64,000 bases of DNA from an uncultured Spirochaetota bacterium (GCA_963832675.1 CAWHUY010000012.1:16857-80856), one strand, 5' to 3'; positions 18,869 to 59,322 are shown, counted from the stretch's first letter. Numbers and translations: made by a program. The notes: generated from the letters alone by a model not told the origin.

Positions 18869-18917
18869 TTTCGTAGAAACCGGCGGAATTGTGAAGAGGG
18901 AAACGGTCCGGACGCGA

Positions 18918-20165
18918 CTACATGTCTGATTCGGAAATCGTGGACAGGTCTGCAGCTCCCTTTTGGTCGACGTCTCCGGTGTACTGCTCGCCGTACAGCT
19001 CTTGAAAGAGCGTTTCCATGTTTTCGAGGGACATGTCGAGGAAACGGATCCCGAGATAGATCCTGTCGGCATCCTTGTAGCGCCGCATGATTCGTCCCTT
19101 GGCCGGAAGACTCTTTTCGCCGAGATAAATCGTAAGGTCGAGATCGGTGTACAAGCCCAGGTTTGGCCCGTTCAGCGGATAACCGAATAGCAGCCCGGAT
19201 CCGCTGATGTCGATGAGCTCCGCGCTGCCGAATTCCTCTTTGACCGGTTCGGCTTTGAAATAGCCGTTCACGGTCAGTGAGTAAGCCAAAACTCGTGAAA
19301 ACTGAAAGACAAATTCAATCGCCTTGGGCTCGAACCCCGGAGTAAGCTCTTTGGACCGCAGCAGGTAGAGGTACCCGACAACATACTGATGAAAGAGGAC
19401 CGGACAGTAGAGTTCCGCGGCAATACCGCGCTGCTTCTGGCGATCACCCACCGCAGAGATGCTCTGCAGCGCGGTGAACACCTCTTCTCCCGCGGTTGTT
19501 TCCACGCGGACAACATCCGGCTGCGTCAGAATCCTTTCCCGTATCACTCTACTGATTTTGAGCGTATCGGGAGAGACGAACGGAAGGATGAGGATCTTGC
19601 CGGAGTTTCCAATAACCCGCTCCTCGAACAATTGCGGCCTACGCTCCCGGAACATGACTATTTTGTTCTCCGAGGAAAACTCACGCGCCCGCTCCCGGAA
19701 CGACCTCAGGAGCTCGCTTATGCGGGCGGCGTCGAATGTCGGCTCAACTGCAGCACTCTCGATCCGCTCCGAAACTTCACCCCGCGGGTAGTTGAGCTCC
19801 ACCTGCTTCCCGTCCACGAGAAAGGTCACCCGCACGCCCTTTGGCGAGATGATGCGTTCATATCCGCGTGTGAGATCCCGCAGAATTTCCTTTGGCCCCA
19901 ACGCGTGGATCATCGAGCCCTTCTTTGCCGTGATCTTGGTCTTGAAGGTCATCGGGTTGCCGCGGAAGCGGAAGTAAAAAACCCCTTCGGAGGGTCCTGG
20001 AATTCGCAGTGGCGATTGCAACTCGCACTCCAGCTTATTGTTCGCGAAAGAGGATATAGTACAACTGGCGCGTTGAGTGTCGACGTGAATTTCCAGTGGA
20101 GACTTGTTCTCCACCACGGTCTTGAGGATGAACTCTTTTTCGATCCTGTTCAGCTCATTTGCCAT
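18918..20165 (-). CDS. PilZ-like domain protein with N-terminal PilZN-type domains
   Basis: C-terminal AELIDISGSGLLF...AKGRIMRRY...GIRFLDMS matches the D/NxSxxG half of the PilZ motif. I could not see a clear RxxxR upstream. 415 aa. Confidence 0.6.
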   Translation of the reverse strand: MANELNRIEKEFILKTVVENKSPLEIHVDTQRASCTISSFANNKLECELQSPLRIPGPSEGVFYFRFRGNPMTFKTKITAKKGSMIHALGPKEILRDLTRGYERIISPKGVRVTFLVDGKQVELNYPRGEVSERIESAAVEPTFDAARISELLRSFRERAREFSSENKIVMFRERRPQLFEERVIGNSGKILILPFVSPDTLKISRVIRERILTQPDVVRVETTAGEEVFTALQSISAVGDRQKQRGIAAELYCPVLFHQYVVGYLYLLRSKELTPGFEPKAIEFVFQFSRVLAYSLTVNGYFKAEPVKEEFGSAELIDISGSGLLFGYPLNGPNLGLYTDLDLTIYLGEKSLPAKGRIMRRYKDADRIYLGIRFLDMSLENMETLFQELYGEQYTGDVDQKGAADLSTISESDM

Positions 20166-20169
20166 TTCG

Positions 20170-20934
20170 TCACTGTGCGTTGTTCATCCAAGTTGGTGTT
20201 TCAGGTTCGATTGCCGTGCCGACAGGCGGCGGCGAGGCAAGAGCGGAGAAATCAGCCTGAACCCCACTAATATACCACCTGTTCGCCGATTTTTCCAGAA
20301 ATATGTCTCCGACAGCGTTTCCCGGGTCTCCGGTAATCACTATTCTCACGTTGGCTGAGTTCGCATCCGGGCGGCCAATTCTGCCGATTCGCCAACTCAA
20401 CGGGATGTACCCTGCTTTCAGGTCGTTTCCCAGTCGCCGGGAGAGGAAAACGGCGTTGTCGGGAAGGATTAGATCGTCGTCGACGCGCCCCTCGGCAAGC
20501 TGTCGGAAAAACCCGACTACCAGATCGTACAGGCCGCGAGTCTCCGCGTCGTTCACCCACCGATCCTGCAATGGACCAATGCGGCTGTCGGCAGGGACCA
20601 GACGCTCCATCAGCCCGGTCTGCATGAGATACTCGTCTTCCCGTCCGCTGAACTCAACCCCGGGGGCCGTCCGGGCTGCCGGCACTGGCCGGACGCCGCC
20701 CGCCGGTGGTACAGGGGCGGTTTTTCCCGGTGACGCCTGGGGACCGACAGTTATTTGCGTCGGTCCCGGCGACGCGGGTACGCTGCTCGCGCCCGCTTTT
20801 CCGGAGCTCGTATTCTTTTCGGACCCACTTGCGCTGACCGGAGCGAAAGGCTTTTCCGCGCGCGCGCGCGCGCCGCACGCGGCGAGCAGCAGGCAGACGC
20901 AAACTATTCCGGCGACCCATTGCAGAATTCTCAT
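20170..20934 (-). CDS. lipoprotein, function unknown
   Basis: MRILQWVAGIVCVCLLLAACG lipobox, followed by a Pro/Ala/Ser-rich linker. Its stop is 4 nt before the PilZ gene start. Confidence 0.65.
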   Translation of the reverse strand: MRILQWVAGIVCVCLLLAACGARARAEKPFAPVSASGSEKNTSSGKAGASSVPASPGPTQITVGPQASPGKTAPVPPAGGVRPVPAARTAPGVEFSGREDEYLMQTGLMERLVPADSRIGPLQDRWVNDAETRGLYDLVVGFFRQLAEGRVDDDLILPDNAVFLSRRLGNDLKAGYIPLSWRIGRIGRPDANSANVRIVITGDPGNAVGDIFLEKSANRWYISGVQADFSALASPPPVGTAIEPETPTWMNNAQ

Positions 20935-21029
20935 GTATCGAATGAATCGTAGCAGAACCGATCTCGTTGGTCAAAGCGGTGTACAGGAGCGGCCGAATCG
21001 GCTAAGATGGGGTCTCGTCCGGAAATTCT

Positions 21030-22316
21030 ATGAACACTAAAGACAGCATAATATGGCACCTCGATCGCGAGTACACCGCTCCGGTTCGAGACCCCCTCTG
21101 GAAGCACATCTATCTTTCACACGGCCTCATGAAAGTGGTTGACTCGCCGGACTTCCAGCAGCTCCACCGGATCAAACAGCTGGGCCCGAGCTACCTCGTC
21201 TATCCTGGCGCCACTCATACGCGTCTGAACCACAGTTTCGGCGTGTTTCACCTGGCACGCCGGATCATTCGCGCTCTTCTCAGCTTCGACAGCTGCATGG
21301 AACTCAGCCTCGAGGGGGTGAAAGCTTTTCTGTGCGCGGCTTTGCTCCACGATGTGGGTCACTTCCCCTACGCGCACAGTCTGAAAGACCTGCCCCTGCG
21401 CGAGCACGAACAGCTCACCGGCCAGATCATTCTCTCCTCTCCGCTCCGTGAGATCATTCAGTCCCATGTGGGAACCGATCCTGAGATCGTTGCGGCCATT
21501 GTCGACCTCTCGCATCCAGCGGGTGAAGACGATGAAGTAGCCTTTTTCCGGCACATTCTTTCGGGTACGCTCGACCCGGACAAGCTGGACTACTTGAACC
21601 GGGATGCCTATTTCTGTGGCGTACCGTACGGGATTCAGGACATTGACTTCGCGATCAGCCGGATGCGCCCCTTCGGCAGCGCCGGCCTTGCAATGGATAT
21701 TTCGGGCATATCGGCAATCGAGCACATACTCTTTTCGAAATACCTGATGTATCGCGCCGTCTACTGGCATCGAACTGTCCGTGTCGCGACGGCCATGATC
21801 AAGAAGGCCTTGCTTCTCGCCCTCCGCGACGAGGTCATCCGCCCGGAAGAGCTCTATGGTCTCGACGATGAGCTTTTTTTCTCTCGGCTTTCGGGAATCG
21901 ACTATCCTCCCTTCGAGCTCATCACACGAGTGCCCAACAGGGAGCTGTATCGGGTTGCCTGGGACACCCCTTTCCGCGAAGACGACCCAGTGCAGCGGAG
22001 GCTCACCGACCTGGAGAACCGCACCAGGACCGAGGCCGAAATCGCCGATCGTTTGAGCTCGCCGAAAATGACTGTCCGGCCCGAGGAGGTAATTATCGAT
22101 ATTCCGGAGAACATATCCTTTGAAGTGACCATTCCTGTGGTAAACGAGGAGGGCGTGGTCGATTACATGGACTCGGGAACCGTCTTCACCCATCAGGTAG
22201 TGGAAGATTTCACGCGCACGCTTCGGCGGGTACGTCTGATCGTTTCCCCGCGGGCGGCCGCTCTCGTCGACGACGCCCCAGCGCTCCTCGCGGAGGCCCT
22301 TTCGGGGAGTGTATGA
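21030..22316 (+). CDS. HD-domain phosphohydrolase, dNTP triphosphohydrolase (dGTPase/SAMHD1)-like
   Basis: THTRLNHSFGVFHLA...ALLHDVGHFPYAH...LDPDKLDYLNRDAYFCG are the HD and downstream motifs of this family. Confidence 0.75.
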   Translation: MNTKDSIIWHLDREYTAPVRDPLWKHIYLSHGLMKVVDSPDFQQLHRIKQLGPSYLVYPGATHTRLNHSFGVFHLARRIIRALLSFDSCMELSLEGVKAFLCAALLHDVGHFPYAHSLKDLPLREHEQLTGQIILSSPLREIIQSHVGTDPEIVAAIVDLSHPAGEDDEVAFFRHILSGTLDPDKLDYLNRDAYFCGVPYGIQDIDFAISRMRPFGSAGLAMDISGISAIEHILFSKYLMYRAVYWHRTVRVATAMIKKALLLALRDEVIRPEELYGLDDELFFSRLSGIDYPPFELITRVPNRELYRVAWDTPFREDDPVQRRLTDLENRTRTEAEIADRLSSPKMTVRPEEVIIDIPENISFEVTIPVVNEEGVVDYMDSGTVFTHQVVEDFTRTLRRVRLIVSPRAAALVDDAPALLAEALSGSV

Positions 22317-23143
22317 CGCAAATTCAGGAGCTCATGCAGGGCGAGATACCCCCACGGATCAGGCGGTTCGTCAAGACGGTGGGGCGTGGCATAAATGAGT
22401 TCCAGATGATCGGCGAGGGAGACTCCGTGCTTCTCGGCATTTCCGGAGGCAAGGACTCGCTTGCCATGGCGCTCGCGCTCTCACTTCGCCGCCGCTGGCT
22501 GCCGATCAAGTACAACCTCCACGCGGTGCAAATCGAGTGGGCCGAATACCCGCTGACTCGAGAGTCGAAGGAACAGCTTGGCGCCTACTTTGACACCCTC
22601 GAAATACCGTTCCAGTTCCTCGAAGCGCACATGTTTCCCGAATCCTTTCGCGGCAAGTTCAGTTGCTACCTTTGTTCCCGCAATCGCAAACGAATATTTT
22701 TTGACCACATCAATCGACTCGGTACCAACAAAATCGCTCTCGGGCACCATCTCGACGACATAATCGAAACCACCCTGATGAATCTTTTCTACCACGGTTC
22801 CTTTGGCACGATGATGCCGGTGCAGGATTTCTTCGGTGGTAAGACGCAGATCATCCGCCCGATGTGCCGAGTCACGGATGCCACTGTGCGCAATATCTCC
22901 GCATTCCTCGATCTGCCCGTTGTTTCTATCAACTGTCCGCACAAAGACACGACGATCCGAACGGACATGAAGCTGATCATTCAATCACTTGCACACAAGA
23001 ACAAACATGTCCGCGAAAACATCTACCGCGCACCCTGGAATATCCTCACCGACTACCTTCCGGGACCGCAGAAACCGCGGATGGAGCCCAACGCGACGGC
23101 CGCTCCCGACCCGTTCTCGGCTTGCAACAGCTCTCGAAGTTGA
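22313..23143 (+). CDS. PP-loop ATP pyrophosphatase, TtcA-like tRNA thiolation enzyme family
   Basis: SGGKDS PP-loop (LLGISGGKDSLAMA), plus Cys motifs CYLCSRNRKR and INCPHKD. The ATG overlaps the HD gene stop (ATGA). Confidence 0.7.
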   Translation: MTQIQELMQGEIPPRIRRFVKTVGRGINEFQMIGEGDSVLLGISGGKDSLAMALALSLRRRWLPIKYNLHAVQIEWAEYPLTRESKEQLGAYFDTLEIPFQFLEAHMFPESFRGKFSCYLCSRNRKRIFFDHINRLGTNKIALGHHLDDIIETTLMNLFYHGSFGTMMPVQDFFGGKTQIIRPMCRVTDATVRNISAFLDLPVVSINCPHKDTTIRTDMKLIIQSLAHKNKHVRENIYRAPWNILTDYLPGPQKPRMEPNATAAPDPFSACNSSRS

Positions 23144-23163
23144 CTACATTTAACGGGAAATCA

Positions 23164-23622
23164 ATGAAGAAGCCAAAATTAATGAAAGAACGTATCCGTC
23201 GGGTAAGTGTATTGTTCAAAGAGCTCGGCTACGATCTGCAGGATCACGAGTACTTCGACGATACCTTCACCGCCGGGCTTCTCTCCGACGACGGTTTTCA
23301 GGCAGGCCTGTTCATCGACAAGGAGAGCAAATTTCTCGAGCTCGCGTTCACGTTTTCATTTTCCCCTTCGCTGTCGGAGTTCATCAAAGAGCGAATCGAA
23401 GAGATGCTTCACATTGTCTACGAATTCGGCTGCTACATAAGTATTCAGAACTCGTCGCGAGAGATCTCGTTCTCCCTTTTTTCGAAAATCTATTACGTCG
23501 GTTTGAACTATCTCACGCTTCGGGAAACTCTGAAGGACTTCCGCGGAGCTATCGACGCGCTCCAGGAGCTTCTGGAGATCCAGAAAGAGTTCGGAAAGGG
23601 AGCCTCTCATGGAGATTCATAA
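23164..23622 (+). CDS. hypothetical cytoplasmic protein (possibly YbjN/chaperone-like fold)
   Basis: Starts at the internal ATG at 23164 (MKKPKLMKERIRRV...). Acidic, 152 aa. No motif I can name with confidence. Confidence 0.45.
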   Translation: MKKPKLMKERIRRVSVLFKELGYDLQDHEYFDDTFTAGLLSDDGFQAGLFIDKESKFLELAFTFSFSPSLSEFIKERIEEMLHIVYEFGCYISIQNSSREISFSLFSKIYYVGLNYLTLRETLKDFRGAIDALQELLEIQKEFGKGASHGDS

Positions 23623-24319
23623 TCTCATGGAAGACGAGGTTATCCGAATTGTCAGTGAAATCGCGGACGAAGACGCCCGGACAGGGGCGTATGGATACGC
23701 GACGACTCCCGAGTGCCAGATGGATGCGGCCTGCTTCGTCCTGAACCGGATTCCTCAGCAGTACGTCACCTCCGGGCGCGGGCTCACCTACCTGCAGAAT
23801 GAATTTCGTGAGAATCCGCAGCTTGCTGTCGACCTGGTTACGCTGGCTCATGAAGGGTTGCGGCGCGTGAGCACCGTGCAACGCTCCTACTACGCGAACG
23901 GGTCGGCGGTCGATTCCCCCGCGCAGAATCCGTACGACGGTTCCGTCCCCGCCCATCACTTTCCGGCCATACGCGGCCGCGTGTTCGACTGCATGACCTT
24001 TGCGCCGGTTGTTGGAGTCGAAGTCTGGCTCAAGCGGGATGGGGCCCCTGCCCCTATGGTCAACGGGCGCTGGCAGAATCCGTGCGGGTTGGTCGACAGC
24101 ACCGCCGGCAGCTATATGTTCTGGCCTGCACCGGTGCCCGCGACGGAGACAGGAGAGCGGAAACTGTTCGAATTTGAAGTCACGGTGGAAGAGTCGAACG
24201 AGTACGAGGCCTTTCATCACTTCTTCAAGCTCGAGGCCACCTCATCCGATTTCGAAGACAACACGCTGCGTCTGACCCGCGAATACATGCTCCAGGATCT
24301 GTTTCTCGCCCGCAGATGA
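23609..24319 (+). CDS. ComFB-domain protein with C-terminal carboxypeptidase-regulatory-like beta-sandwich
   Basis: NLMEDEVIRIVSEI...ECQMDAACFVLNRIPQQYVTSGRG matches the ComFB pattern (Cys...D..alaLN.lpP.Yv). The C-terminal IRGRVFDCMTFAPVVGVEVWL is CarboxypepD_reg-like. Overlaps the upstream gene by 14 nt. Confidence 0.6.
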   Translation: MEIHNLMEDEVIRIVSEIADEDARTGAYGYATTPECQMDAACFVLNRIPQQYVTSGRGLTYLQNEFRENPQLAVDLVTLAHEGLRRVSTVQRSYYANGSAVDSPAQNPYDGSVPAHHFPAIRGRVFDCMTFAPVVGVEVWLKRDGAPAPMVNGRWQNPCGLVDSTAGSYMFWPAPVPATETGERKLFEFEVTVEESNEYEAFHHFFKLEATSSDFEDNTLRLTREYMLQDLFLARR

Positions 24320-24337
24320 AGTCCGCCTGTGCAGAGA

Positions 24338-25798: not shown

Positions 25799-26728
25799 CT
25801 ACCAGCCGTTCTCGGCCGCAATCATGTAGAATTCGTCCAGCATCTTCACGTCGAACCCGTAGAAGCGGTAGTTGCGGCGCGCAATGCTCAACCAGCTCTT
25901 GTCCGGAGAGTCTGCACCGCGATCGACGCGCAGCTGAGGATGATAATTTCGGCAGCGCGCCGCGAATACCGCGGCGATTCTTGCCGTCGCCTCAACGAAC
26001 CGGTTTTCTGAGAAGGAGATGTTCGCATTGACCGCGCTTCGGACAAGCTGTTCCGGAAGCAACTTCAGCTGACCGGTCAGCGCCTCGACCACCTTTTCCG
26101 CAAACTGCGGCTGAATGGTGCCGGCGATTCGTTCCTGCCCAACCACGTTGCTCGAAGCGGTCAACGCATATATAGCCGGACGAAGGAGCAGGGTTGCCAG
26201 GACAAGGCCGCGGATTTCGTCTTTGCCGATCCGCAGCCGCTGAACCTTTGTCAGCTCGAAATGCACGTAGGATTTCCGGAGAAATATCTCGTCTATATAC
26301 CGGTCGACGGCGCCGAAGACCAGGGCGGCAAAGGCGCCGGTGAACGCCCGTCGGGCGTCCAGGTTGGCCAGCAGGCTTACGAGAAAATTGTATATTTCGG
26401 ATTGAATTTTCGAGATGTCGGTCGTTCGCTGTTTCAGGATTGGAGCAAACGCGAAAGATACTTTTGTGAACACAATCTCTTTGAGCTCCGGAAAAAGCCG
26501 CTCGTTCGTCTCTCTCGCCATCGCCTGGACCAGAATTGCGAACACCTGACTCCAGCTTTTTCCAACGAAATAGGGTGCTGCGGTGAGAGTCGGGGCGAGC
26601 TGTGCAGCATTGGCGTGAAGGAATTGTATAACCTGCTCCTCGCGCTGCAGTTCGGAAAAACCCTTCAGTGCGGGATTGGCGAGAAGTCGTTGTACGAATG
26701 TTTGTGCACGGTCAATCTCTTCGATCAT
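25799..26728 (-). CDS. hypothetical protein, co-transcribed with the voltage-sensor/HAMP gene
   Basis: Start taken at the internal ATG at 26728 (MIEEIDRAQTFVQRLL...). Helical, no recognisable motif. Its stop is 12 nt before the next gene start. Confidence 0.5.
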   Translation of the reverse strand: MIEEIDRAQTFVQRLLANPALKGFSELQREEQVIQFLHANAAQLAPTLTAAPYFVGKSWSQVFAILVQAMARETNERLFPELKEIVFTKVSFAFAPILKQRTTDISKIQSEIYNFLVSLLANLDARRAFTGAFAALVFGAVDRYIDEIFLRKSYVHFELTKVQRLRIGKDEIRGLVLATLLLRPAIYALTASSNVVGQERIAGTIQPQFAEKVVEALTGQLKLLPEQLVRSAVNANISFSENRFVEATARIAAVFAARCRNYHPQLRVDRGADSPDKSWLSIARRNYRFYGFDVKMLDEFYMIAAENGW

Positions 26729-26754
26729 CCCACCTCCGGCCGCTGTCGAGGCGT

Positions 26755-26783
26755 CTGACAAAAACTTTTTCGCAAAGTATACT
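26755..26783 (+). promoter_or_regulatory. sigma70-type promoter of the giant envelope gene
   Basis: CTGACA-N17-TATACT read directly. The -10 ends 9 nt before the ATG at 26793 and there is no SD, so the transcript would have a very short leader or none. Confidence 0.45.
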
Positions 26784-26792
26784 ACACTGTTA

Positions 26793-29700
26793 ATGAGGTT
26801 CGACACAACCCGCGGCGTATCCACGGTCGCCCGCTTGCTGCCCCTGATCGCCATGCTCGTGGTAGTGCTGGTGCCGGACGGTGTCGCGCAGGTCGTGCTC
26901 CCGGAGGCGGTCCGCCAGAATTTGCCCGACTACCTCTTCCTGGGCGAAGCCCCCACTGCCCTGCTGCAAAGTAAAGTGGGCGACGCCGATGTCGACCTCT
27001 ATGCCGCAGGATCGTGGCAAACAACTATTTCAGCATCGCTCGCAATCGGGATTCATCCGGGCCTGGGAAACGGCAGCGGCTATCAGTTCCCCTACCCTTT
27101 TCCCGGTATGGACCCGTTCTCGTTCCTCAACCAGGTCGACCTTACCATATCCCTCTGGATCCTCAACCGCTATTTCTTCCAGACAACATTTCTTGACCAG
27201 TTTGCTCTCAACACTTTTCTTCTCGGTTACCAGGGTCAAAAGGGCGAGTTCGTGCAGAAGGTCCTCATCGGCAATACACTAATGCCGTTTTCTCAGTATC
27301 CGTTCCTCGCAGTCGACGGCACCGAATACCCGACGGATCAGAGGCCGCTCGGCCCGGCCACACAGCCAACGGCCAATGGGGCAATTCCGGCGCCCGGAAC
27401 GGCACCTGCAGGACAGACGCCGGCATCTGAGGGCGATATCCCGCCTTTCAACCCTCCGGCATCTGCCGGCATAACGCCCGATTCAAGCAGCTCCTCCGGG
27501 GGAGCTCCGGCTACGCCTCGGGCGCAACCAACGTGACGAATTCGCTGGGAATTGCCGCTCTGTTCGAGACCGACCGCAGTCGGCACGAGCTCGTCTTTCG
27601 CTACGAGGACAACGGACTGGCCCACAAGTCCTACCTGGGCACAAACGAGGTTGTACGAACGCACATCAACCCGGCCGACTACACCTCGGGCAGATTCTTC
27701 GTCCTTCCGGACGCGAACATCACGAATCTGCAGGTTTACCTGGAAGATCCGGCAGGGACGGTTCCCGCCACAAGCATAGGTGGCGCCTTCGGGATGTTCA
27801 GGAAGGCGAATCTCGATCAGATTGCCGTGTATGATCTGCAGGCGGGAACGCTGTTTCTGCGGGAAAAACCGGTGGGCCGAGTACTCGTGACCTACACGAA
27901 AGGGGGCGCCACCGTCGGAGACGCAAGCCTCGGGCAACAATGCCGTCTATGCTCTGATTACAGCCGGAGCGCCGATTCGGGAACTACCCGGTCCAATTCG
28001 ACTGGAATGCCCCAGCGGCTACACGCCACCGAACTTCAACAACATGATGTCAGACAGTGGCCGCGTCGACGTAGACGACATCCACTACACCATCGGCGGC
28101 ACCGACTACCTCCTGCTGTGGCAACCCGGCTACTACTCGCCCTTCGAGCTGCAGAACCAGTACGACGCGACCGACGCGGTCAACAACGCGAACTCGACGG
28201 TCGGAACGATTGCCGCAACACGGGCGATCATCGCGCGTCGCGGCACCTCCTCGCCCTACACGCTTTCACCGAACAGAAACGCCGTGATCATCCCCGACGA
28301 CAACCGGGTAGCCGTCGTCGATCCGGCCGACTCGAGCGTCCGCGACTTCGTGAACCGTTACCCGTTCGCCGACACACAGCCCGAGCTACCCCGACCTCTA
28401 CGGGGTCAGCCCCAACGCAATCCCGGCCTACACCCCGTTCGACGTCATGATCGAACAGCAGATCACGCGCACCGCGATTACGATCGACAGCGACGCGGTT
28501 CCCGGCTCGGTGCATGTTGCGATCAACGGCAAGGAGACAACTTCGTTCACCGTCGACTACACATCCGGCACCGTGAGCTTTCCCTTTCCGATAGTGCCGA
28601 CCGACAATATCGACATCACCTACCGGACGCGAAGCGCGGGAACAACGGGCGGCCAGATAGTCTTCGGCAGCGGCAACACGATCCTGCTCTCCAACCGGCT
28701 GGTTCTCGACCTCGCGCTCGGCCTCCGCTGGAGCGTGCTCACCGGCGGCTACACTACCGAGCCCGGCCAGAGCCCCGGCTCTATCGTGACCTCGGCTCGA
28801 CTCTCCTACACCGGCACGCGATTCACCGGCTCAATCGCCGCCGGCGTTTCGGTGACCTCTCCGGACACCACGGGGATTCTTCGGCTTGCGGGCATGGGCG
28901 AAGACACCAGCCTTTTCGCCGTCGATGCGACGCGGCTTCTGCCCTCGGCCGCTGCCGACGGAGCTGGGTGCCTTCACCGAAACGAACCGGGGTGAAACCT
29001 ACTACAAAGACTACGGCGCGAAAGACCCGCTTGGGGGAACATCACTGCAGCCCTACAACTGGTCGAGCATCCCCTCGTCGCAGCAGTACCCCTACGCGAG
29101 CGGTTCGCGTATCGGGCCCTATGCGGCGACCGGGGGAACCGACGGACCCGACGGACAGGTGATGGTGCTCGACTATCACCTCGCGAACAGCCAATGGGTC
29201 GGCGGTGACCTCGCCGCGCCCTCCGGACAGGAGCTCGATCTTTCGGCGGCGCGGGCAATCGCGGTGACCTGGCGGCTGGCCTCTCCGCTCTCCGGATCGG
29301 TCTCCGGTACGCGTGCGCATCTTTCTGCAGGCGGGAAGCCTCGGCGAAGACCGTGACGGCAACGGTCAGCTCGACTCGGGCAACAGCGCGGTGAACCCCG
29401 GCTTCGACTTTCATGACAGCGCGCACAGCAACATTGTGCTGCGGGCGGGCGGGCCGCCCTGGACTCCCTTCGTTCACACCGAGGACACCAACGGAAACGG
29501 GATCCTTGATGCGAGGAAGTCAAACATCGTACTTACCAAGGAGTTGAGCGTAGACAGCAGCGACGTAAGTTCGCCCGTAAGCGCGGCCACCGGCTTTGTT
29601 CGTACCGAAATCCCGCTGACCGCGGCCGACCGGGCGAAGCTGCGCGACGTGCGCGGCGTGCGGATTGTCGTGTACGACACAGCCGGCGGTTCCGACGGGC

Positions 29701-32199
29701 GCGTCGTTGTCGGCGGGATCACGATCGAGGGAACGAGCTTTTCGGGAGCGATCAACCCGGCATCGAGCACCGGAACGCTCAACCTGCGAGAAACCGACGA
29801 ATCGGTTCTCGCTCCGGCAACTCCCCTGCTGAACGCCTTTCCCGAAACATCACCGATGCTCGCCGGCTCGGCCGCCAACCAGGTGCTGCTCGTCTCGTGG
29901 GGCTCGCCGACTCCATTTGCGACCACCGACACCTGGTCGGCAGTCCACTACACCACACCTGTTCTCGACAGCCAGTACAGCGACCTGGTCTTCTACGTCG
30001 GCGCCGGCCGCGTTGAACGGCGGCCCCGCCGAAATCCTCACGGTTCACTATGACTACGATGATACGACTCCCGGACTGAACGCGACGTTCACGTGCCTGC
30101 GGTAGACAGCCCGCCCCACTGGCACAAGATCGATATCGGCCTCGCCGCCCGGACTGTCTCCATAGACGGCACGCGTCGATCCGGGCGCTACGGTCAGCTT
30201 CAGCCCTTCGGGAAACAACGCTGACCCGGCTGCAGTTCGACGGCACCGGCACAACGACCGGCGAGGCTCGCCATAGACGAAATCGCGTTGACAAATGCGG
30301 CGACCCGCTGGGGTGCGGGCACCCAGGTGCAGGCTACCTACTCGGCGCCGGGGGTTATCCTCCACTCCGGGAGATGTCTCGATATTGAAAGATGCGACGA
30401 TTTCGGCAAGCGGCTATGCCCGCACCAGCGGATTCGCTCGATGGCGCAGGAAACCAACCCGCAGAACGCAGGCCTCGCGCTGCAGGGCGGTGCCGACATC
30501 CTCATTGCTCATCTCGACGCGAATTTTTCCGTCGACGGTTCCTGGACCGATGCAAACGTGCCGGGGTCGAGAAGCGATCTGGTCACCGCGGGCGGCCACG
30601 CGTTGCGGCTTCCGGCCGCGCCATCGCCGGTAACCTTCACTGACGCGTTTCAGCGCAGCTATTCGCCCGTTCAACCGCAACTCTTCCGGAAGAACACCCT
30701 CAGCCGTCGCCATCCCGCAGGCGTTGAGCATAACCCTGGGAACCCAGGGGTCCTATCCCGGGCAGCTTAACGCCAATGTCTCCGGCAGTACGACGACCTC
30801 CGGCGCGACCTTGAACCAGACCTGGACAACTACGGTAAGCTCCGCCTGGCCCGGTCCGTTCTCGCTCCAGCTCGGCGCAAACTTCTCCGACCTCTCTTCA
30901 TACGATCTTACCGACAACTCCGCCTATCCGGTGGCATGGATCGACGCCTACCGGTTTGCCCTTCCGTGGAACGCCGATCCTTCCGCAACGAGAACCGGCA
31001 CCATGACGCTGGACCTGGCATTGAATCTGGCGGCTGTGGCGCCTGAATTGTCGTTCGCGGCAAGCTACCAGACCGCCTACGGCAGCTCCGGGTCATCGGG
31101 TGTAACGCAGACAAATCAGCAGCTTTCCACGGCGTCAGTGACGCTGAGTGTCCCGATAACACTGGTCCCCGCAGCCGGGGGCTCCCCGCAATCCGGCCTT
31201 CTCTCCGGCCTGACCATAACGCCGTCCTATCAGCGCGTGGTCAAGGCCGCTGGGATTCCGGTCCGATCATGGCTGTCGGTGATGGGAGCGGACGCGTCGA
31301 CCGCAGCGTCGGTGATGGACTTTCGCCTCTACGGAAACGATATCGCCTATTACGGCGGCTCGATTTCCGATCAGACCTACTTCTTCACGGCGGCGCCATT
31401 CTACGATCTTTTCTCCCAGCCGCTCGTCGGGACATTCGCAAGTCAGAGCAGCGGTTACGCATACGCGCTTTATGAGCCCGGTACCTCGCTCGGGATATCC
31501 CGATCGATCGGATCGAACTGGGCCGACCTCATTGTGCCGAACCGCGTCCAGGTGAGCGGTGAGCCGTGATCTGACTCGCCAGGCGGACTCGGTCACGGAC
31601 GGGAACAGCGTCGACATCGGTCTTACCTACGCGGCGATCAATCTGTTCGGTCGACTCGGCGCCTACCCCCTATTTCCGTTTTACCGCAGCGAAGAGATAA
31701 CTTCCTCGATCGATCTGAAGTTCCAGACTGCGACGACCCAGACCGGGCCCTACTGGTCGCTCTATCATCTGCTGAGCACTACGGTACGGGTCACCGAGGA
31801 AGACAGCGTGTCGCTCGATAATCAGTTTACGGTGAGCGCGCAGCCTGAGACCGCCTATTCGGATACCGGAACGGCGGCCTTCAACTGGCGAACCCATCCG
31901 ACCACAATCTTCGGGATCAAGCAAGATTAGCGACGCGCTCGCAAACGGGGCCTACGTCGCGCACAAGGAGGCAGCGTCGGTCGCATGGAACCAGACGCCC
32001 ACGGTTCTCGGATTGGCCCAATCCGGTTTGACGCTGACTCTCGAACACGACAGCGGACTTGCACATTCCCAAAATGGGTGAGATTTCCGTCTTCGGAAAG
32101 TTCGGTTTTGGACTGACTCCCTACTCCACAAGCCCCTCAGACGGCCAGATCGTGTCGCTCGGCCTGCAGATCGGAATCAAGGGACAGCTTCAATTCTAG
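26793..32199 (+). pseudogene. giant (about 1800 aa when reconstructed) exported, beta-rich, Ca-loop-containing envelope protein, disrupted by at least 13 frame changes
   Basis: Signal peptide MRFDTTRGVSTVARLLPLIAMLVVVLVPDGVAQ. Sense jumps between frames at about 27534, 27933, 28380, 28935, 29310, 30010, 30100-30290, 30700, 31555, 31915 and 32080. Contains DRDGNGQLD and DTNGNGILD loops. Ends ...GLQIGIKGQLQF then TAG. Confidence 0.7.
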
Positions 32200-32253
32200 C
32201 CTCGACTCCCGAGATCCGGAACGCGTAGACGTGGCTTTTTTCGATCGGCGGGG

Positions 32254-32280
32254 TATAATCTGCCGTTGAACGATAGGAGG
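32254..32280 (+). promoter_or_regulatory. TATAAT -10 box and GGAGG ribosome-binding site of the first barrel-like paralog
   Basis: TATAAT at 32254-32259 (weak -35). GGAGG at 32276-32280, 5 nt before the ATG at 32286. Confidence 0.4.
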
Positions 32281-32285
32281 TTCAC

Positions 32286-33800
32286 ATGCGTGGGAAAACT
32301 TGGTGCAGCGCGATCAGCGGGCGGTATCTGCTGGTTGCTTTAGTCGTTGCAGCACTCTTCGCGCCCGCAGTTGCCACCGCGCAGACCACGCCCTCGGCGC
32401 CCTCGGGCGGAGCAATAATTCCCGGCATCAACGATGTCGGTGGCAATTCCAACAAGACAAAGTTCGGTATGGATCTGCTGATTGGAGTTCAAACCTTCCC
32501 GAATCCGGACTACAATCCCTCCGATCCTGCGAGCAGCCCGACAATCGGGTATCAGAGTCTCGGTCTCCGCCCGGATCTCTCTTTCGGAAAGTTCGGCGTC
32601 GGCCTCAACCTCATGTTCAACTATCGATTCAACGCCGGGCCGGACCAGAACCAGTTCGCGGTACGGAAAGAGGACTGGGTTCCCGATGCAAATACCAGCC
32701 TTCCTCGAGCTCTACCTTCCGAAGATCCGGTACGTCCGCTGGGACCACAAAGGAGCACCGCTCTATATCCTTCTCGGCCAGGTTGACAACGGCGTTCTGG
32801 GAAACGGGTACATAATGGGCGGCTACACCAATACGCAGTTTCTTCCGCAGCGTCCGGTTTTCGGCCTGAGCTTCGACGTGGACGGTGCGCTCTTCGGGTT
32901 CCCCTATGTCGGCATCGAGACGTTCGCCGCAAATCTTGCCGCCTGGGATCTCCTTGGCGGTCGTTTCTATGTTCGGCCTCTGAAAGGGTTGAGCGTACCG
33001 GTAATCCAGGATCTGCAGATCGGCTCATCCCTGGTGGTGGACCGCAATCCCTTCTACTTCGCCGAACGCGATCCCGGGGGTCTCTACAACAGCCAAACCG
33101 GCAGCCTCTCGGCGCCATCGAACGCGCAGGTGTTCATTTGGGGTGTCGACACGCGTCTGCCGATTCTGACGAATCCGGTCGTGAGCCTCGCGACTCTATG
33201 GCGACTTCGTGCAGCAGAAGAGAGGTCAGGGCGAGATGGTAGGGGCAGGCGGTCGTTTTTTCGGAATCATTACCTACGGCGCTCAGATGCGTTTCGTCGG
33301 CGAAAACTTCATCCCCGACTATTTCGATTCGACCTACGATCTGTACCGCGTGCAGAAGTATTCGATCTACACCGGCCAGAACTACGTTGACGGAAGTCTC
33401 TCGCCGGTGAATATGCCGGCCTATACCGGCTGGCTCGGAAGCGTCGGCCTCTCGATTCTCGACGACAAGCTGTCATTCATTGCAAGCATGGACGGCGCGT
33501 TCAATGCCGACCTCTCGAATCTCGGTTGCTGCGACCTTTGCCTATCCTCATCTGCGGGCGGTTCTAACGATGGCTCAGGGAATAATCCCCGGGTTCGCCG
33601 TTTCGGCCACCTACGACAAGTATTCAATCGATAGCTGGAACTCGCTTGTCAGCGCAGACAACGCAGTCATCGGCGCGAGAATCGACTACAAAACCGGTCC
33701 CGCCGTAATATCGCTTGTCTACGATTTGAAGCACAATACGACTCCGGGGCAGCCGTGGACGGTTACGTCGCGGCTGGAGACCTCGATCACCCTTTTCTGA
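32286..33800 (+). pseudogene. exported barrel-like protein, paralog of the C-terminal half of 33911-36016, with three frame changes
   Basis: Signal peptide MRGKTWCSAISGRYLLVALVVAALFAPAVATAQ. Frame changes at about 32695, 33200 and 33530. Ends ...RLETSITLF. Shares FL..L..KI.Y..W...P.....G...L G.G..M and GIET....L......GGRFY.RP blocks with the next gene. Confidence 0.7.
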
Positions 33801-33910
33801 ATATCGGAGGACCCCTATGAAGCGTGCACGTACTGCACCGCCGACGGTTTTAGCGCTTATTCTGTCTCCTCTGCGGAGCAGTTGCTGCATATGCCCAGAA
33901 AGCGCCCGTC

Positions 33911-36016
33911 ATGACGCTCGATTACTTCGATAACGATCAGCAGATCACCGTTACGAACAAGGATGGCATGGCGTACCAGTTCGTAAATTTGGGAATGCAG
34001 CTTACGCCCGGGGATCGCGTCAGCACGCGAAGCTCGACGGCAGAGCTCCGCCTCGATCCGAACGGCACAATAATCAAGCTCGCGCCCTACACCGACTTTA
34101 CCGTCGATTCGGTCGCGGGAGTCGGCCAGAGCCACACCAACAGTTTCACCCTGCAATCGGGAACGCTGCACGCCGTCGTAGCCAGAGTTACCGGTACGAA
34201 CTATGAGTTCCGAACGCACGCGGCTGTTGGGGGAATTCGCGGAACCGATTTCGGTATGCTGGTGATTCCCGGTAAAGCCGATCAGTTGTTCGTGAAAGAG
34301 GGATTGGTCGAGTTCACAAAAACCGGAGGACAGACGCTGCAGGTTGCATCCGGCCAGTTTGCCGATGCGCTCGCACCGACGTTCCAGGCCGTCGCGCTGT
34401 CTGGCCAGCAAATCGCAGACCTCTTCAAGAATCTTGATTTCACCAAGCTCGATCCGACCCGGGTTCCCGGTCAACAGATCGCAAAATCCACTACGCCGGC
34501 AGAAAATGCTCCGCCGGAGACACCGACAAAGGCTGAAGCTCCAACTCCACCCAAATCCGGTGGCGGATCTTCCTTTCTGGCCGATTTCTTCAGTCTCGAG
34601 ATCGGTGGAGTCACAATCGACGGGGTTACCTACTCGAAACTCGTACTTGGCCCGCACTTCCAGATCGGCAAACTGAAGGCGGCTCTCTACCTGCCGGTGA
34701 TCTATTCGTCGAATGTGCTCGACCCTGCCGACTGGTATCGCCCCAACGGCAACAACGAGTGGAGCTTTGGATTCGACAAGTCCACTTTCGTCGACGGTGC
34801 AAAGGATTTCCTCACCGATCTCATGCTGAAGATCAACTACATTGAATGGGGCAAGCAACGGGATCCGTTCTTTTTCAAGATCGGCAATCTCAACGACATG
34901 ACGCTGGGACACGGTGTTCTGATGCGCAACTTCGCCAACAACGCTGATTTTCCGGCAGTGCGGCGAGTGGGCCTGAATCTCGGATTGGATTTCAAATCCG
35001 CAGGAATCGAAACGGTCGTAAACGATCTGGCAAACCCGGAGATCTTTGGCGGCAGATTCTACCTGAGGCCGTTTGGAAAGACTTTCCCGCTCGCTCTCGG
35101 GCTGAGCGCCGTCACTGACCTTACTCCCGCATCAGAGGTCCCAACCCTGCCGGCGGGAACCGGTGCGTCTGTCGCGCAGGCGTATGCCGACGCGGTATCC
35201 GCAAATCCGCTTTTCCTGACGGTCGGAGCGGACCTCGACTTTCCGCTGGCTGAATCCGATAAGCTTTCTGCCATACTCTTCGCGGACGTTGCCGGTCTGG
35301 TTCCCTATCTCCGAAACAGCGTCGCCGGGCTCTCCACCGGCTTCCATACCGACGCGGTTCTATACGTCGATCCGGCAGGAAAGCATTCCTTCCGCAACTA
35401 CGCGGCCGCAACCGGTCTCCTGGGCAATATCGCAGCGCTCAACTACCGCCTGGAATATCGGATATACAACGGCGTCATTCACCCGGCCTTCTTTGATACC
35501 GTTTACGAACGGCTGCGCGGTCAATACGCGGCTGACGTCATGACCTACCTCGAAAACCCGACCGACAGCAGGTATGACCAGGTGACGATGGGAATCTATG
35601 GCGAAGCCGGTTTCACGCTGTTCAGCGCCGTAGATTTCCAGGCCGGGTACTTCTGGCCCTGGACGTGGGACTCGGCCGGAAACCTCCAGTTCGGCGACAA
35701 CGACTATCTGAAGCTGATGCTGGCAGTGCACAAGAAGAAACTGCCGCTCGGGATATACGGTTCCATTTCGTACGAACGAACTAAATTCGTCCCGACGCTG
35801 CTCGGAAAATCGACGACCTACGGAAAGTTGAGCCTCTTCGATGCGAACACAGCTGTTGTCGGTGAGCTCGTCTATCCGGTTGCGCCGCCGCTCGACCTCA
35901 TGCTGCGGGTCACGACCACGGTTCGGCACGACAGCGCTGGAAATGTCATCTACGACACGAATGGGAATCCGACCTTCAGCCCATCGGTCACCATTGAAAC
36001 GCGCATAGGGTTCTAG
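33911..36016 (+). CDS. FecR-domain protein fused to a C-terminal-Phe barrel-like domain. The signal peptide lies upstream in another frame (start ATG 33817)
   Basis: N-terminal FecR-like region (TPGDRVSTRSSTAELRLDPNGTIIKLAPYTDFTV...FRTHAAVGGIRGTDF). C-terminus ...SVTIETRIGF. GGAGG at 33806-33810 plus the ATG at 33817 encode MKRARTAPPTVLA..., which needs a 1-nt shift near 33860 to join LLCGAVAAYAQKAPVMTLDY. Confidence 0.7.
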   Translation: MTLDYFDNDQQITVTNKDGMAYQFVNLGMQLTPGDRVSTRSSTAELRLDPNGTIIKLAPYTDFTVDSVAGVGQSHTNSFTLQSGTLHAVVARVTGTNYEFRTHAAVGGIRGTDFGMLVIPGKADQLFVKEGLVEFTKTGGQTLQVASGQFADALAPTFQAVALSGQQIADLFKNLDFTKLDPTRVPGQQIAKSTTPAENAPPETPTKAEAPTPPKSGGGSSFLADFFSLEIGGVTIDGVTYSKLVLGPHFQIGKLKAALYLPVIYSSNVLDPADWYRPNGNNEWSFGFDKSTFVDGAKDFLTDLMLKINYIEWGKQRDPFFFKIGNLNDMTLGHGVLMRNFANNADFPAVRRVGLNLGLDFKSAGIETVVNDLANPEIFGGRFYLRPFGKTFPLALGLSAVTDLTPASEVPTLPAGTGASVAQAYADAVSANPLFLTVGADLDFPLAESDKLSAILFADVAGLVPYLRNSVAGLSTGFHTDAVLYVDPAGKHSFRNYAAATGLLGNIAALNYRLEYRIYNGVIHPAFFDTVYERLRGQYAADVMTYLENPTDSRYDQVTMGIYGEAGFTLFSAVDFQAGYFWPWTWDSAGNLQFGDNDYLKLMLAVHKKKLPLGIYGSISYERTKFVPTLLGKSTTYGKLSLFDANTAVVGELVYPVAPPLDLMLRVTTTVRHDSAGNVIYDTNGNPTFSPSVTIETRIGF

Positions 36017-36031: not shown

Positions 36032-37918
36032 ATGGGAGAACATCGCCGCTCACCAACGGGCCGCATCCACGTTCTGCGGGACGAGGTCGCCCGAAAGATT
36101 GCCGCCGGAGAGGTCGTCGAACGGCCCCATTCGGTCGTACGCGAGCTTCTCGACAACGCCCTCGACGCGGGAGCCGGTGAGATCCAGGTACACCTGTCGC
36201 GCGGCGGCACGCAGCAGATCCGCGTCGTGGATGACGGTGCGGGAATGGGGATCGACGACCTGGATCTGTGCTGGCTGCCTCATGCGACATCGAAAATCGA
36301 AACCGAAGCGGATCTGTCGACCACGCGCTCGCTCGGCTTCCGCGGCGAAGCGCTTTCGAGCATCGCCGCGGTCGCACGGTTGGAAATCGTAAGCAACCCG
36401 GCAGACGGGGGCCCCGCCGGAAGACTGGTCGTTCACGGGGGAAACCGTATTGCCATCGAACCGTGGCGGGGCCCGAAAGGCACCAGCGTCGATGTCGGCG
36501 AGATTTTCTATTCGCTGCCGGCGAGACGGAAATTTCTGCGAACCGCGGGTGCCGAATCAGCGATGTGCCGGCTCGTGATCATCGATCGCGCGCTCGCGTT
36601 CCCCGAAACCGGCTTCCGCTACTTCACCGAAGGTTCATTGCGGGCGTTTTTCCCCGCTGCGCGGAGCGTCGGCGGGGCCGCGTCGCCCGAACGCGAGACA
36701 ACCCGCATGGTGGCCGGAGCCGACGGCGGCCTCACCGACGCCGACAAGGGGCCCTCACCAGAGGGACTCAAGCGCCGCATACTCCAGGTATTCCCCGATA
36801 TCGTGGAGCAGGCGTTCTTGCGCACCATCTCCGGATCGGGTCCCGGCTTCAGCTTCGACGCGGTTCTCGAGACCCCGGACCTGTTCCGTACAGATCGAAA
36901 ATTCATTCAGATCTTTGTGAATAGGCGGCGGATCTGGGATTTCGCCTTCGTTCAGGCCATCGAGTATGCGTTTGCCGGATACCTTCCCGGGGGCCGCTAC
37001 CCTATTGCCTTTCTCTTTCTCAACGTCGATCCACAGCTGGTCGATTTCAACATCCATCCGGCAAAAAGAGAGGCGAGATTTCGCAACGCCGCAGAAATCC
37101 ATCATCGAATTGTCGAGGTGGTCCGCTCGTTCCTTTCGGCACACGCAAAACGGATCGCCTCCTCTGGATTTCAGACCGGCGATGGCTTGCTCGACGGCTT
37201 CGCCGCCGGTCGACCGATCAAAATCGGCATGAACGAACAAACGGCGATTGCCGCCCAGCCGCGGCCCTCCCTGACCCCATCCATCGCCGATCGGAGCTCT
37301 GTCGACTACGACCTCAAGAATCGCCTGGATCCCGGGGAAAAATCCCCGGTTCGCTACCTTGGTCAGATCATGGGACTGTTTCTCGTAGCCGAAATGGGTG
37401 AGCGCCTTCTTATTGTCGATCAACATGCTGCGCACGAGAGACTGCTTTTTGACCAATTCATGGCCGGTGGGCCGGTGCAATCACTGCTCGTGCCGCTGGA
37501 GGTTACACTCGAACCTGATCAGTCCAGGATGTTGGCGAAAAACCGCGAATTGCTCGAACGGCAGGGAATCACTGTCGAGCCCGTCGACCCTGCAGTCCCC
37601 ACGGATGAACCGACTGAGGATAGCTCTCCTGTCTGGCGAGTTTCGGCGGTTCCGGCCTCTCTCTCCGGTTCGCTGAAGAGGCTGGTTGACGGACTGCAGG
37701 GCCTCGAGGTAGCTGGCGGTGGAATTGTTCGACAGCTGTACGCGACCATGGCGTGTCGCGCGGCGGTGATGGACGGCGACCCAGTCGACGCGGTTACCGC
37801 GGTGACGCTGATCGAGAACTCCCTTCGACTCGAGAACCCCCGTTGTCCGCACGGTCGGCCGATCTGGCACGAAATCACCCGGTCAAGATTGTTCGAGCTC
37901 GTAGGTCGCGTGGTATAG
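36032..37918 (+). CDS. mutL: DNA mismatch repair protein MutL (endonuclease-proficient type)
   Basis: GHKL ATPase N-terminus IAAGEVVERPHSVVRELLDNALDAGA. C-terminal endonuclease motifs DQHAAHERLLFDQF and CPHGRP. Confidence 0.95.
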   Translation: MGEHRRSPTGRIHVLRDEVARKIAAGEVVERPHSVVRELLDNALDAGAGEIQVHLSRGGTQQIRVVDDGAGMGIDDLDLCWLPHATSKIETEADLSTTRSLGFRGEALSSIAAVARLEIVSNPADGGPAGRLVVHGGNRIAIEPWRGPKGTSVDVGEIFYSLPARRKFLRTAGAESAMCRLVIIDRALAFPETGFRYFTEGSLRAFFPAARSVGGAASPERETTRMVAGADGGLTDADKGPSPEGLKRRILQVFPDIVEQAFLRTISGSGPGFSFDAVLETPDLFRTDRKFIQIFVNRRRIWDFAFVQAIEYAFAGYLPGGRYPIAFLFLNVDPQLVDFNIHPAKREARFRNAAEIHHRIVEVVRSFLSAHAKRIASSGFQTGDGLLDGFAAGRPIKIGMNEQTAIAAQPRPSLTPSIADRSSVDYDLKNRLDPGEKSPVRYLGQIMGLFLVAEMGERLLIVDQHAAHERLLFDQFMAGGPVQSLLVPLEVTLEPDQSRMLAKNRELLERQGITVEPVDPAVPTDEPTEDSSPVWRVSAVPASLSGSLKRLVDGLQGLEVAGGGIVRQLYATMACRAAVMDGDPVDAVTAVTLIENSLRLENPRCPHGRPIWHEITRSRLFELVGRVV

Positions 37919-58544: not shown

Positions 58545-58584
58545 AAGCCGCTTCCGGCGGGTTGGTGACGGGGCGAGCCGGCGC

Positions 58585-58800
58585 CTACTGCTTCTTGCCG
58601 GAGCGATCGTTGTTCATCCGGCCTCGCGGTCTGGCACCATTGGTCGCTCGCCCGGTCGGCAGTTTTCCATGTTTGCCGCCGGGATTCACGCGCCGGTTGA
58701 GCGCTCCGGGGCCCTGGTTCTGATGTATCCGGCCCGGCTCCGTTTCATTTTTTACCCGATCGGTTTTCCCCTTTTGGTCATCAGCGTTCGTTTCGGCCAT
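58585..58800 (-). CDS. small basic, Gly/Arg/Asn-rich hypothetical protein (71 aa)
   Basis: ATG at 58800 preceded by GGAGG. Composition suggests a disordered protein. Confidence 0.4.
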   Translation of the reverse strand: MAETNADDQKGKTDRVKNETEPGRIHQNQGPGALNRRVNPGGKHGKLPTGRATNGARPRGRMNNDRSGKKQ

Positions 58801-59069
58801 AGAGTCCTCCTGCGGAACAACTACCCGCGACGATGAAGGCACATCCGGAATTCCGCAAGTGGTTCGGACTCCCCCTCACTGGTGCCTCTTCGGCCGCCCC
58901 GTCGCAAGTACTATATGTAATGTAACAGATAATTTCGTGCAGTGCAACGAGGGTGATCAAGCGGGACACATCCGGGATCTCCGCTAATATAACAGTATTT
59001 TAATCGACAAATCGTGGATTTATAGGCCCAATACGACGATAATTAGCATAGTTTCGATGGAAGGAGACT

Positions 59070-59258: not shown

Positions 59259-59288
59259 CCGCGACGTACTTTCTCCTCCTACGTCGAC

Positions 59289-59322
59289 GGCCGGAGTCCA
59301 GAGGGCTCCGGCCGTTTCTATT
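59289..59322 (+). terminator. rho-independent terminator after the 62-aa ORF
   Basis: GGCCGGAG-TCCAGAGGG-CTCCGGCC followed by GTTTCTATT. Confidence 0.6.

Follow-up and report, generated by a model that had tools for sequence, protein, structure and literature searches.

Genes and features at the locus

The window, i.e. the whole 64-kb stretch of DNA from an uncultured spirochaete that we analysed, carries on its + strand (positions 26793-32199) one giant gene. Its codon-by-codon alignment to an intact ortholog revealed 17 frame segments separated by 16 frame changes, a segment count that discounts one in-frame +1/+5 pair in a variable stretch. The features of the locus are as follows.

25799..26728, - strand: divergent upstream gene, 309 aa, intact; 92% identical to its L001 ortholog, dN/dS 0.05
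26755..26783, + strand: sigma-70-like site CTGACA-17-TATACT, its end 10 nt upstream of the ATG; 10/12 match, weak evidence of a promoter
26793..32199, + strand: gene of about 1,792 codons for the giant envelope protein; 85% identity to P0001 (1,797 aa) across its entire length
27498..27502, + strand: first frame change, loss of 1 nt in or adjoining a G5 run of the variable linker; stop of the old frame at 27534-27536
29349..29510, + strand: two Asp/Gly-rich loop motifs, DRDGNGQLD and DTNGNGILD; family forms EDLDGDGxLD and SEDxNGNGxLD
30290..32196, + strand: region predicted to form the C-terminal outer-membrane beta-barrel, with about 25 long strands and a final Phe
32286..33800, + strand: downstream OMP-like gene, about 505 codons in 4 frame segments; +1 changes at 32699, 33192 and 33518
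33817..36016, + strand: FecR-domain gene; at least one +1 shift at about 33854-33875, clean thereafter to its stop
36032..37918, + strand: mutL, intact, part of the conserved gene order; clean sequence 3' of the tract of frame breaks

Three-frame translation showed protein-like text that hops from frame to frame, the abandoned frames turning Arg/Pro-rich, as described in an initial annotation of this DNA. The open reading frame pieces listed there were all found in place, and its two example junctions, at about 27933 and about 28380, are accurate within 5 nt (the breaks map at 27938 and about 28377). It had counted at least 13 frame changes; the 16 of the giant gene exceed this number, and there are more in the next two genes. 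The reconstructed product, which it put at ~1800 aa, has about 1,792 aa and contains the motifs reported, namely DRDGNGQLD (29349-29375), DTNGNGILD (29484-29510) and a final GIKGQLQF (32173-32196) followed by TAG. As for the near-consensus promoter that it placed at 26755-26783, the site exists, with 10 of its 12 positions matching, but shuffled sequence contains sites of this kind about as often (1.8 expected, compared with 2 found in the region).

The giant protein has a signal-peptide-like N-terminus, followed by a Pro/Ala/Gly/Ser linker (about 27330-27530) specific to the clade of the window and P0001, all-beta middle domains and a C-terminal barrel. Judging from their motifs, both Asp/Gly-rich loops may bind calcium; the invariant columns across the family are E856, D859, D865, E901 and D902. 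We also considered a true gene split at 27533, where a GTG overlaps the TGA stop, and rejected it because the second part would be devoid of an export signal and the relatives are fused.

The two genes that follow are also of the envelope type. The OMP-like gene has a signal-peptide-like start and a C-terminal Phe; its intact 521-aa ortholog lies at L006:3714-5279, and its position is kept in the related loci L004 and L006. The FecR-domain gene starts at ATG 33817, downstream of a GGAGG, with its signal-peptide-like start in one frame and the remainder in the next, and has intact 745-aa orthologs in L004 and L006. On the other side, the 309-aa gene marks a clean 5' boundary of the tract.

Relatives and predicted structure of the giant protein

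The intact ortholog, P0001 (VMW87_08370), is encoded by a Spirochaetia bacterium (GCA_035530755.1) and is colinear with the giant protein over its full length, at 85% identity. The identities with 16 further family members are 27-33%. The family, whose members have ~1,600-1,800 aa, comprises 957 cluster representatives at E <= 1e-3 from Spirochaetota and is unannotated. The existence of the intact 1,797-aa ortholog and the predicted C-terminal barrel confirm the reading of the pieces as a single exported envelope protein of ~1,800 aa, which the initial annotation had put forward. It had also named an outcome that would speak against this reading, separately initiated genes in relatives, which is contradicted by the finding of one ORF in every relative examined.

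Gene order is shared as well. Like members of the P0001 family, the window harbours upstream genes for PilZ/DUF1577, HD, TilS-like, ComFB, DUF503, ion channel and 309-aa proteins, and downstream the OMP-like gene, the FecR-like gene and mutL, and its giant gene agrees with theirs in the conserved loops and the barrel C-terminus; the flanking genes are the same in L001, L003, L004 and L006. In contrast, only the window copy, among those examined, lacks a single ORF. Pfam and NCBIfam scans with the ten window pieces and 17 family members returned nothing credible, and PDB sequence searches with three family profiles gave no match. A genome-contig scan with a single protein found only P0001's own contig and L006, and a scan of JGI metagenomes found no relative.

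We then turned to structure prediction. AF2 modelled the orthologous C-terminal 633 aa with a pLDDT of 80.7 and a pTM of 0.71, and the best PDB matches of this model (E <= 0.001) are all large outer-membrane barrels, i.e. MtrB, SprA, LptD and SlpA. With MtrB (6R2Q), LptD (4RHB) and Deinococcus SlpA (8AE1/8AGD), the predicted likeness is that of a many-stranded antiparallel barrel over those 633 residues, but at TM-scores of 0.24-0.39, 8-11% identity and no shared Pfam domain, it is a resemblance of fold class only. The match to SprA has E = 2.6e-4; the model is confident, but many barrel types match it. For the N-terminal 1,190-residue model, which is of low confidence (pLDDT 56.5), Foldseek matched SprA in four structures (E = 3e-26 to 2e-13, TM of about 0.33), the next best hit being at 3e-6.

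As modelled, the giant protein would thus resemble SprA/Sov (6H3I, 6H3J, 8GL6, 8GL8) in that one giant chain forms an outer-membrane beta-barrel and carries large all-beta inserts. In contrast, SprA has about 2,400 aa compared with about 1,600-1,800 here, and the identity is 11-12%. No sequence-level link to SprA was found with Pfam, NCBIfam or PDB profiles: none of the 17 family members matches the SprA models (Pfam SprA N-terminal domain, NCBIfam/TIGRFAM SprA) at E <= 1. By analogy, the OMP-like gene adjoining the giant gene may recall PorV, the partner barrel of SprA, a lead taken from the literature; the scanned neighbours have no Pfam matches to type 9 components or C-terminal sorting domains. 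The type 9 system has been described as confined to Bacteroidota or to the wider Fibrobacteres-Chlorobi-Bacteroidetes group. In our best reading, the giant protein is an outer-membrane protein with a large beta-barrel that is probably SprA-like.

Distribution and spectrum of the frame breaks

The frame changes of the giant gene were placed by alignment to the ortholog as follows.

27938, about 28377, 28953, 29311, 30000, 30173, 30217, + strand: +1 changes
30264, 30367, 30704, 31558, 31922, 32059, + strand: remaining +1 changes
about 27499, 30094, 30439, + strand: -1 changes

With those of the next two genes, ~20 single-base breaks lie in one 6.4-kb tract (about 27498-33870) that spans three genes. 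The tract is a continuous run of DNA rather than a unit of function and disregards gene boundaries: it extends across two intergenic regions and reaches only ~50 nt into the third gene, the remaining 2.1 kb of which is clean. No broken gene was found in the other ~57 kb of the window. The initial annotation had reported essentially no breaks in the flanks; this holds for the 5' side but is wrong for the 3' side, where the next two genes are also shifted.

In the 8.7 kb of upstream synteny with the same relative, at equal divergence, the only indels are of 3 and 12 nt in genes and of 2 nt in an intergenic region; thus, the frame breaks are not a matter of chance. According to a three-way alignment polarised with L006, the 13 breaks from 28953 onward are specific to the window and occur in neither of the two relatives. 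All other indels in the three lineages are in frame, being multiples of 3 or adjacent pairs that sum to one.

The indels of the tract, all of 1 nt, depart from parity (p = 0.0013), with 17 insertions and 3 deletions. The tract has 257 runs of at least three bases, yet of the insertions that are clearly placed, 15 in number, none falls in such a run, and the sole homopolymer break is that at about 27499 (G5). In a survey of prokaryotes, deletions exceeded insertions in every group (PMC2817411). Loss of mismatch repair was rejected as a cause, as the mutL gene next door is intact and the indels avoid homopolymers.

Another possibility is that the protein is made despite the breaks, every site being bridged by programmed frameshifting, slippage of the transcript or editing. 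The selection still visible on the protein would fit this idea, but the sites have no motif in common and contain neither slippery heptamers nor long runs, a stop in the old frame follows anywhere between 6 and 783 nt further on, and the corresponding sites are unshifted in L001, L006 and every other relative examined. We therefore rejected it, giving it practically no credence, for want of a shared slippery or stimulatory motif and because the orthologs are unshifted.

An independent contig covers the beginning of the tract. Between Logan contig L008 (run ERR11571143) and the window there are 6 SNPs, which lie without exception inside the giant gene and make it about 14-fold denser in SNPs than the flanks (p = 7e-5). 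All six are at synonymous third positions, two of them downstream of the first break. L008 has the break at about 27499 and ends at 27571, just before the insertion-type breaks begin. Thus, for at least one frameshift the choice is between a real change and a systematic error in the same reads. It is the only break cross-checked in this manner, because exact look-ups for independent contigs with the window fragments P0022 and P0025, and with the FecR-like and MutL products, retrieved none. The run accession gave no result in the literature either.

Selection and the origin of the frame breaks

The giant gene has a dN/dS of 0.145, compared with 0.005-0.235 in flanking genes, and no in-frame stop in 1,783 aligned codons. 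With L006 as the outgroup, lineage-specific substitutions number 143 in the window (27/21/95 by codon position) and 179 in L001 (36/23/120), codon positions 1 and 2 taking the same share in both lineages, and relative-rate tests detected no extra substitutions on the window lineage. At conserved family columns, the amino-acid changes derived in the window and in the ortholog number 10 vs 14, 5 vs 4 and 1 vs 1. As regards the criteria for a pseudogene, changes that disrupt the frame relative to intact orthologs are present, and relaxed selection, in the form of excess lineage-specific and non-synonymous changes and of in-frame stops, is absent. A long-standing pseudogene from an old inactivation would account for the many frame breaks, but it is refuted by the lack of excess substitutions, the unchanged codon-position profile, the absence of stops and the dN/dS, and we consider it to have almost no chance of being correct. 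With old decay excluded, the three causes offered by the initial annotation, very recent decay, collapsed heterogeneity and local assembly error, all survive.

Very recent decay would mean a real inactivation of three adjacent envelope genes, perhaps begun by the deletion in the G run at about 27499, after which single-base indels accrued faster than substitutions. We regard this as a serious possibility, albeit a doubtful one. It is in line with the presence of the first break in L008, whose SNPs show a different consensus, and with the listing of the fragments as separate proteins in the public record; moreover, the broken genes are all of exported or outer-membrane type and adjacent in relatives, and could be lost together. 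However, we estimate at most about 40 neutral substitutions in 3.6 kb with 13 indels, i.e. at least about 1 indel per 3 substitutions. This is well above the ratio in bacterial spontaneous mutation, roughly 1 in 10. The bias to insertions and the avoidance of homopolymers are the opposite of the natural spectrum, and the lack of stops, the synonymous nature of all six SNPs, including the two after the first break, and the fact that the third gene is affected only in its first ~50 nt also argue against inactivation.

In a mixed case, which appears rather unlikely, the G-run deletion at about 27499 would be a real variant, possibly a reversible on/off slip in the linker, and the other ~19 breaks would be assembly errors. 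This break is indeed both the only homopolymer break and the only one covered by L008, and the insertion breaks all lie beyond 27571. However, a G5 tract is short for phase variation, the case is built on one independent contig, and the synonymous-only SNPs downstream argue for a downstream frame that is still translated. Even the insertions might be real, arising from a local process prone to insertions in an envelope gene cluster of SprA-like type that is still under purifying selection in the population, for instance if a surface machine is switched off in some cells, with intact alleles in others. We hold this to be very improbable; if it were true, a type-9-like translocon family would also be placed in Spirochaetota.

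The explanation that we favour, though with limited confidence, is that the ~20 frame changes are local single-base consensus errors in one ~6.4-kb stretch of a public 128-kb MAG contig. We infer such a technical origin because the insertion-dominated spectrum avoids homopolymers, the tract ignores gene boundaries and selection is visible in the polymorphism. As the sequence is otherwise without any sign of decay, errors are likelier than a dead gene, and the locus is most likely a cluster of envelope genes that are intact and under selection in an uncultured spirochaete. The tract might rest on few reads or on error-prone ones, or it might be a collapse of co-existing strains whose differences are mainly synonymous; either route could plausibly leave stray extra bases in the consensus. 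Two points go against consensus error: single-base insertions would hardly arise as artefacts if the contig comes from short-read de Bruijn assembly alone, and the first break recurs in L008.

The tract resembles the frameshift clusters of unpolished or low-coverage assemblies in that single-base indels without accompanying substitutions occupy one stretch and ignore gene boundaries. Unlike homopolymer-type platform errors, which would be expected in runs, the breaks of the tract do not lie in runs, and one of them is reproduced in a second assembly. Each insertion might also represent the two alleles of a SNP at a synonymous third position, set side by side. By our estimate, this fits 8 of 16 sites where about 0.35 per site is expected (p about 0.17), which cannot be told from random insertion, and it is no more than an idea.

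Should the breaks be errors, one conserved 1,800-aa protein and its partner appear in public entries as many false small proteins (P0020-P0026), which should be taken neither for a pseudogene nor for new small genes. Of more use, as a by-product, is the widespread, unannotated, spirochaete-specific family of giant outer-membrane barrels in a conserved neighbourhood. Its predicted fold appears closest to that of SprA, a lead worth testing that is independent of the broken copy.

One giant envelope protein read across shifting frames

Between positions 26650 and 33900 of the window, the ORF listing and the three-frame translation show protein-like text hopping among the three forward frames, with the frame left behind decaying to Arg/Pro-rich text at each switch, as the initial annotation had described. 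Joining 16 sense pieces by hand gave a 1,792-aa product. In a protein-collection search, it matched P0001, an intact 1,797-aa protein from the Spirochaetia MAG GCA_035530755.1, at 85% identity over 100% of the query, and 17 further proteins of ~1,580-1,700 aa at 27-33% identity; neither P0001 nor any of these 17 is informatively named or contains a Pfam domain. The intact ortholog bears out the earlier proposal of a single gene: the sense pieces together encode a single conserved envelope protein and are not separate genes. At 27533-27536 (GTGA), the GTG opening the next frame overlaps the first fragment's stop codon, which resembles a coupled two-gene arrangement. This overlap is probably a coincidence, because the second part would be devoid of an export signal.

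The window (26700-32400) and the P0001 gene (L001:8756-14149, in the relative's locus) share 85.6% identity at the DNA level. Projection of the alignment on the ortholog codons yielded 19 segments, two of which, an in-frame pair (+1/+5) within a variable region that is open throughout in the window frame, were discounted, leaving 17 frame segments and the following 16 frame changes, all on the + strand:

27938, ~28377, 28953, 29311, 30000, 30173, 30217, 30264, 30367, 30704, 31558, 31922, 32059 (+): +1 changes, 13 sites
~27499, 30094, 30439 (+): -1 changes, 3 sites

A three-way alignment of the window, L001 and L006 (a relative's locus, 71% amino-acid identity) takes in residues 590-1797. All 13 one-base indels in this region are specific to the window, and the remaining indels in all three lineages are in frame, being multiples of three or adjacent pairs summing to one.

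The protein belongs to a large family restricted to spirochaetes. With clusters formed at 50% identity, an exhaustive profile search retrieved 957 representatives at a cutoff of E <= 1e-3 and 551 at E <= 1e-30; most are 1,500-1,720 aa long. Word-indexed protein searches returned 19 and 10 members, so that the family looks far rarer in such searches than it is. The named members are all 'hypothetical proteins' of Spirochaetota MAGs, including Alkalispirochaetaceae and a Treponema sp., and sequence searches of Pfam, NCBIfam and the PDB gave no match to the family. The two Asp/Gly-rich loops pointed out in the initial annotation proved to be conserved family features and are predicted to bind calcium. 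Gene order is retained even where the giant proteins are only ~30% identical (window 18918-40958; L001, L003, L004 and L006):

upstream: PilZ/DUF1577, HD, TilS-like, ComFB, DUF503, ion channel, 309-aa gene, then the giant gene
downstream: OMP-like, FecR-like, mutL, TPR proteins

L003 lacks the OMP-like and FecR-like genes, and mutL directly follows the giant gene.

Extent of the frame-broken tract

Frame breaks also occur in the two genes that follow the giant gene:

32286-33800 (+): OMP-like gene whose product has a signal-peptide-like N-terminus and ends in Phe; four frames are needed to align it to the intact L006 ortholog (521 aa)
33817 (ATG; +): FecR-domain gene, third in the row, with GGAGG ahead and a signal-peptide-like start (domain scan and frame reading)

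Alignment to the L006 ortholog places +1 shifts at 32699, 33192 and 33518 in the OMP-like gene. The bulk of the FecR-domain gene sits in the next frame, where a TAG occupies 33851-33853 and no start codon occurs upstream of 33911. This requires one or more additional +1 shifts near 33854-33875, after which the remaining 2.1 kb of the gene are clean. In total, the tract comprises ~20 frame changes, 17 insertions and 3 deletions, from ~27498 to ~33870. It thus corresponds to a stretch of DNA rather than to a single gene, and the earlier statement that flanking genes have essentially no breaks does not hold for the 3' neighbours, with three shifts (32286-33800) and at least one (33817-33875).

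Outside the tract, long ORFs with a normal GC profile by codon position tile the window, and no further broken gene was seen in the rest of the 64 kb. The 8.7 kb upstream are 83.5% identical to L001, the sole indels being of 12 and 3 nt within genes and 2 nt in an intergenic region. At 58545-59458, ~900 nt have no convincing ORF, tRNA or Rfam match; they adjoin a small gene (59459-59725, -) that resembles ribosomal protein S21.

Nature and cause of the breaks

All indels of the tract are single bases, and insertions outnumber deletions (17 versus 3; p = 0.0013 against parity). In a survey of >5,000 indels, deletions exceeded insertions in every prokaryotic group examined (PMC2817411). Among the 15 clearly placed insertions, seven differ from both adjacent bases and eight create a run of two; none lies within a run of three or more, of which the tract holds 257 (50 of four or more bases). 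Such a placement is expected neither from replication slippage nor from homopolymer-type platform error; the insertions look like random bases at random positions. Programmed frameshifting was rejected, because the sites have no common motif, the distance to the next old-frame stop varies from 6 to 783 nt and the orthologs are unshifted at every site.

We found no signal of decay in the giant gene. Its dN/dS relative to L001 is 0.145 (Nei-Gojobori; dS 0.49), within the 0.005 to 0.235 of ten flanking genes, and the 1,783 aligned codons include no in-frame stop. At conserved family columns, defined on 16 outgroup proteins, window-derived and P0001-derived replacements number 10 versus 14, 5 versus 4 and 1 versus 1 with rising stringency. 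With L006 as the outgroup, the window has 143 lineage-specific substitutions (27/21/95 by codon position) and L001 has 179 (36/23/120); the window branch is thus no longer than that of L001, and first and second positions make up the same fraction of the changes in both (34% versus 33%). From these counts, we estimate that at most ~40 neutral substitutions accompany 13 indels in 3.6 kb. Old decay is excluded by the branch length, the codon-position profile, the absence of stops and the dN/dS.

Public databases (NCBI and ENA) list the fragments as individual proteins of a single 128,037-bp contig; the breaks therefore belong to the deposited sequence. Exact-protein look-ups recovered two independent Logan contigs of run ERR11571143, L007 (window 17589-24336; five mismatches, no gaps) and L008 (24342-27571; six mismatches, no gaps); further look-ups and a JGI scan yielded no more independent sequence. 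L008 also has the G-run deletion at ~27499 and the early stop. At least the first break is thus reproducible; this finding is what mainly speaks against a pure artefact. All insertion-type breaks lie beyond the end of L008 at 27571. The six mismatches of L008 all fall inside the giant gene (26793-27571) at synonymous third positions of the ancestral frames, two of them downstream of the first break; neutral changes would show this pattern with a probability of ~5e-4, assuming that ~28% of random changes are synonymous. As SNP density is also ~14x that of the flanks (p = 7e-5), co-existing strains differing in the giant gene are suggested.

The breaks are lineage-specific, single-base, insertion-dominated and outside homopolymers, without relaxed selection, in one 6.4-kb stretch crossing gene boundaries. 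We therefore somewhat favour a local consensus error in the MAG contig as the most likely cause of the ~20 breaks. Very recent inactivation, with real breaks, is less probable but a serious rival, given the first break reproduced in L008. A mixed case is possible.

Predicted structure

An AlphaFold2 model of the C-terminal 633 residues of P0001, based on a 12-sequence alignment, has ~25 long strands (pLDDT 80.7, pTM 0.71). The top PDB matches of this model, at E <= 0.001, are without exception large outer-membrane barrels (MtrB, SprA, LptD and SlpA; TM 0.24-0.39), in keeping with the barrel-style C-terminus noted initially. The N-terminal 1,190 residues (window 26793 to ~30370) gave a poor model (pLDDT 56.5), which four SprA structures match at E = 3e-26 to 2e-13, the next match being at 3e-6. 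Identity to SprA is 11-12%, with no profile match, and published accounts limit the type 9 secretion system to Bacteroidota or, more broadly, to the Fibrobacteres-Chlorobi-Bacteroidetes group. The giant protein may have an SprA-like architecture, with barrel strands broken by large all-beta inserts, which we regard as a lead rather than as membership.
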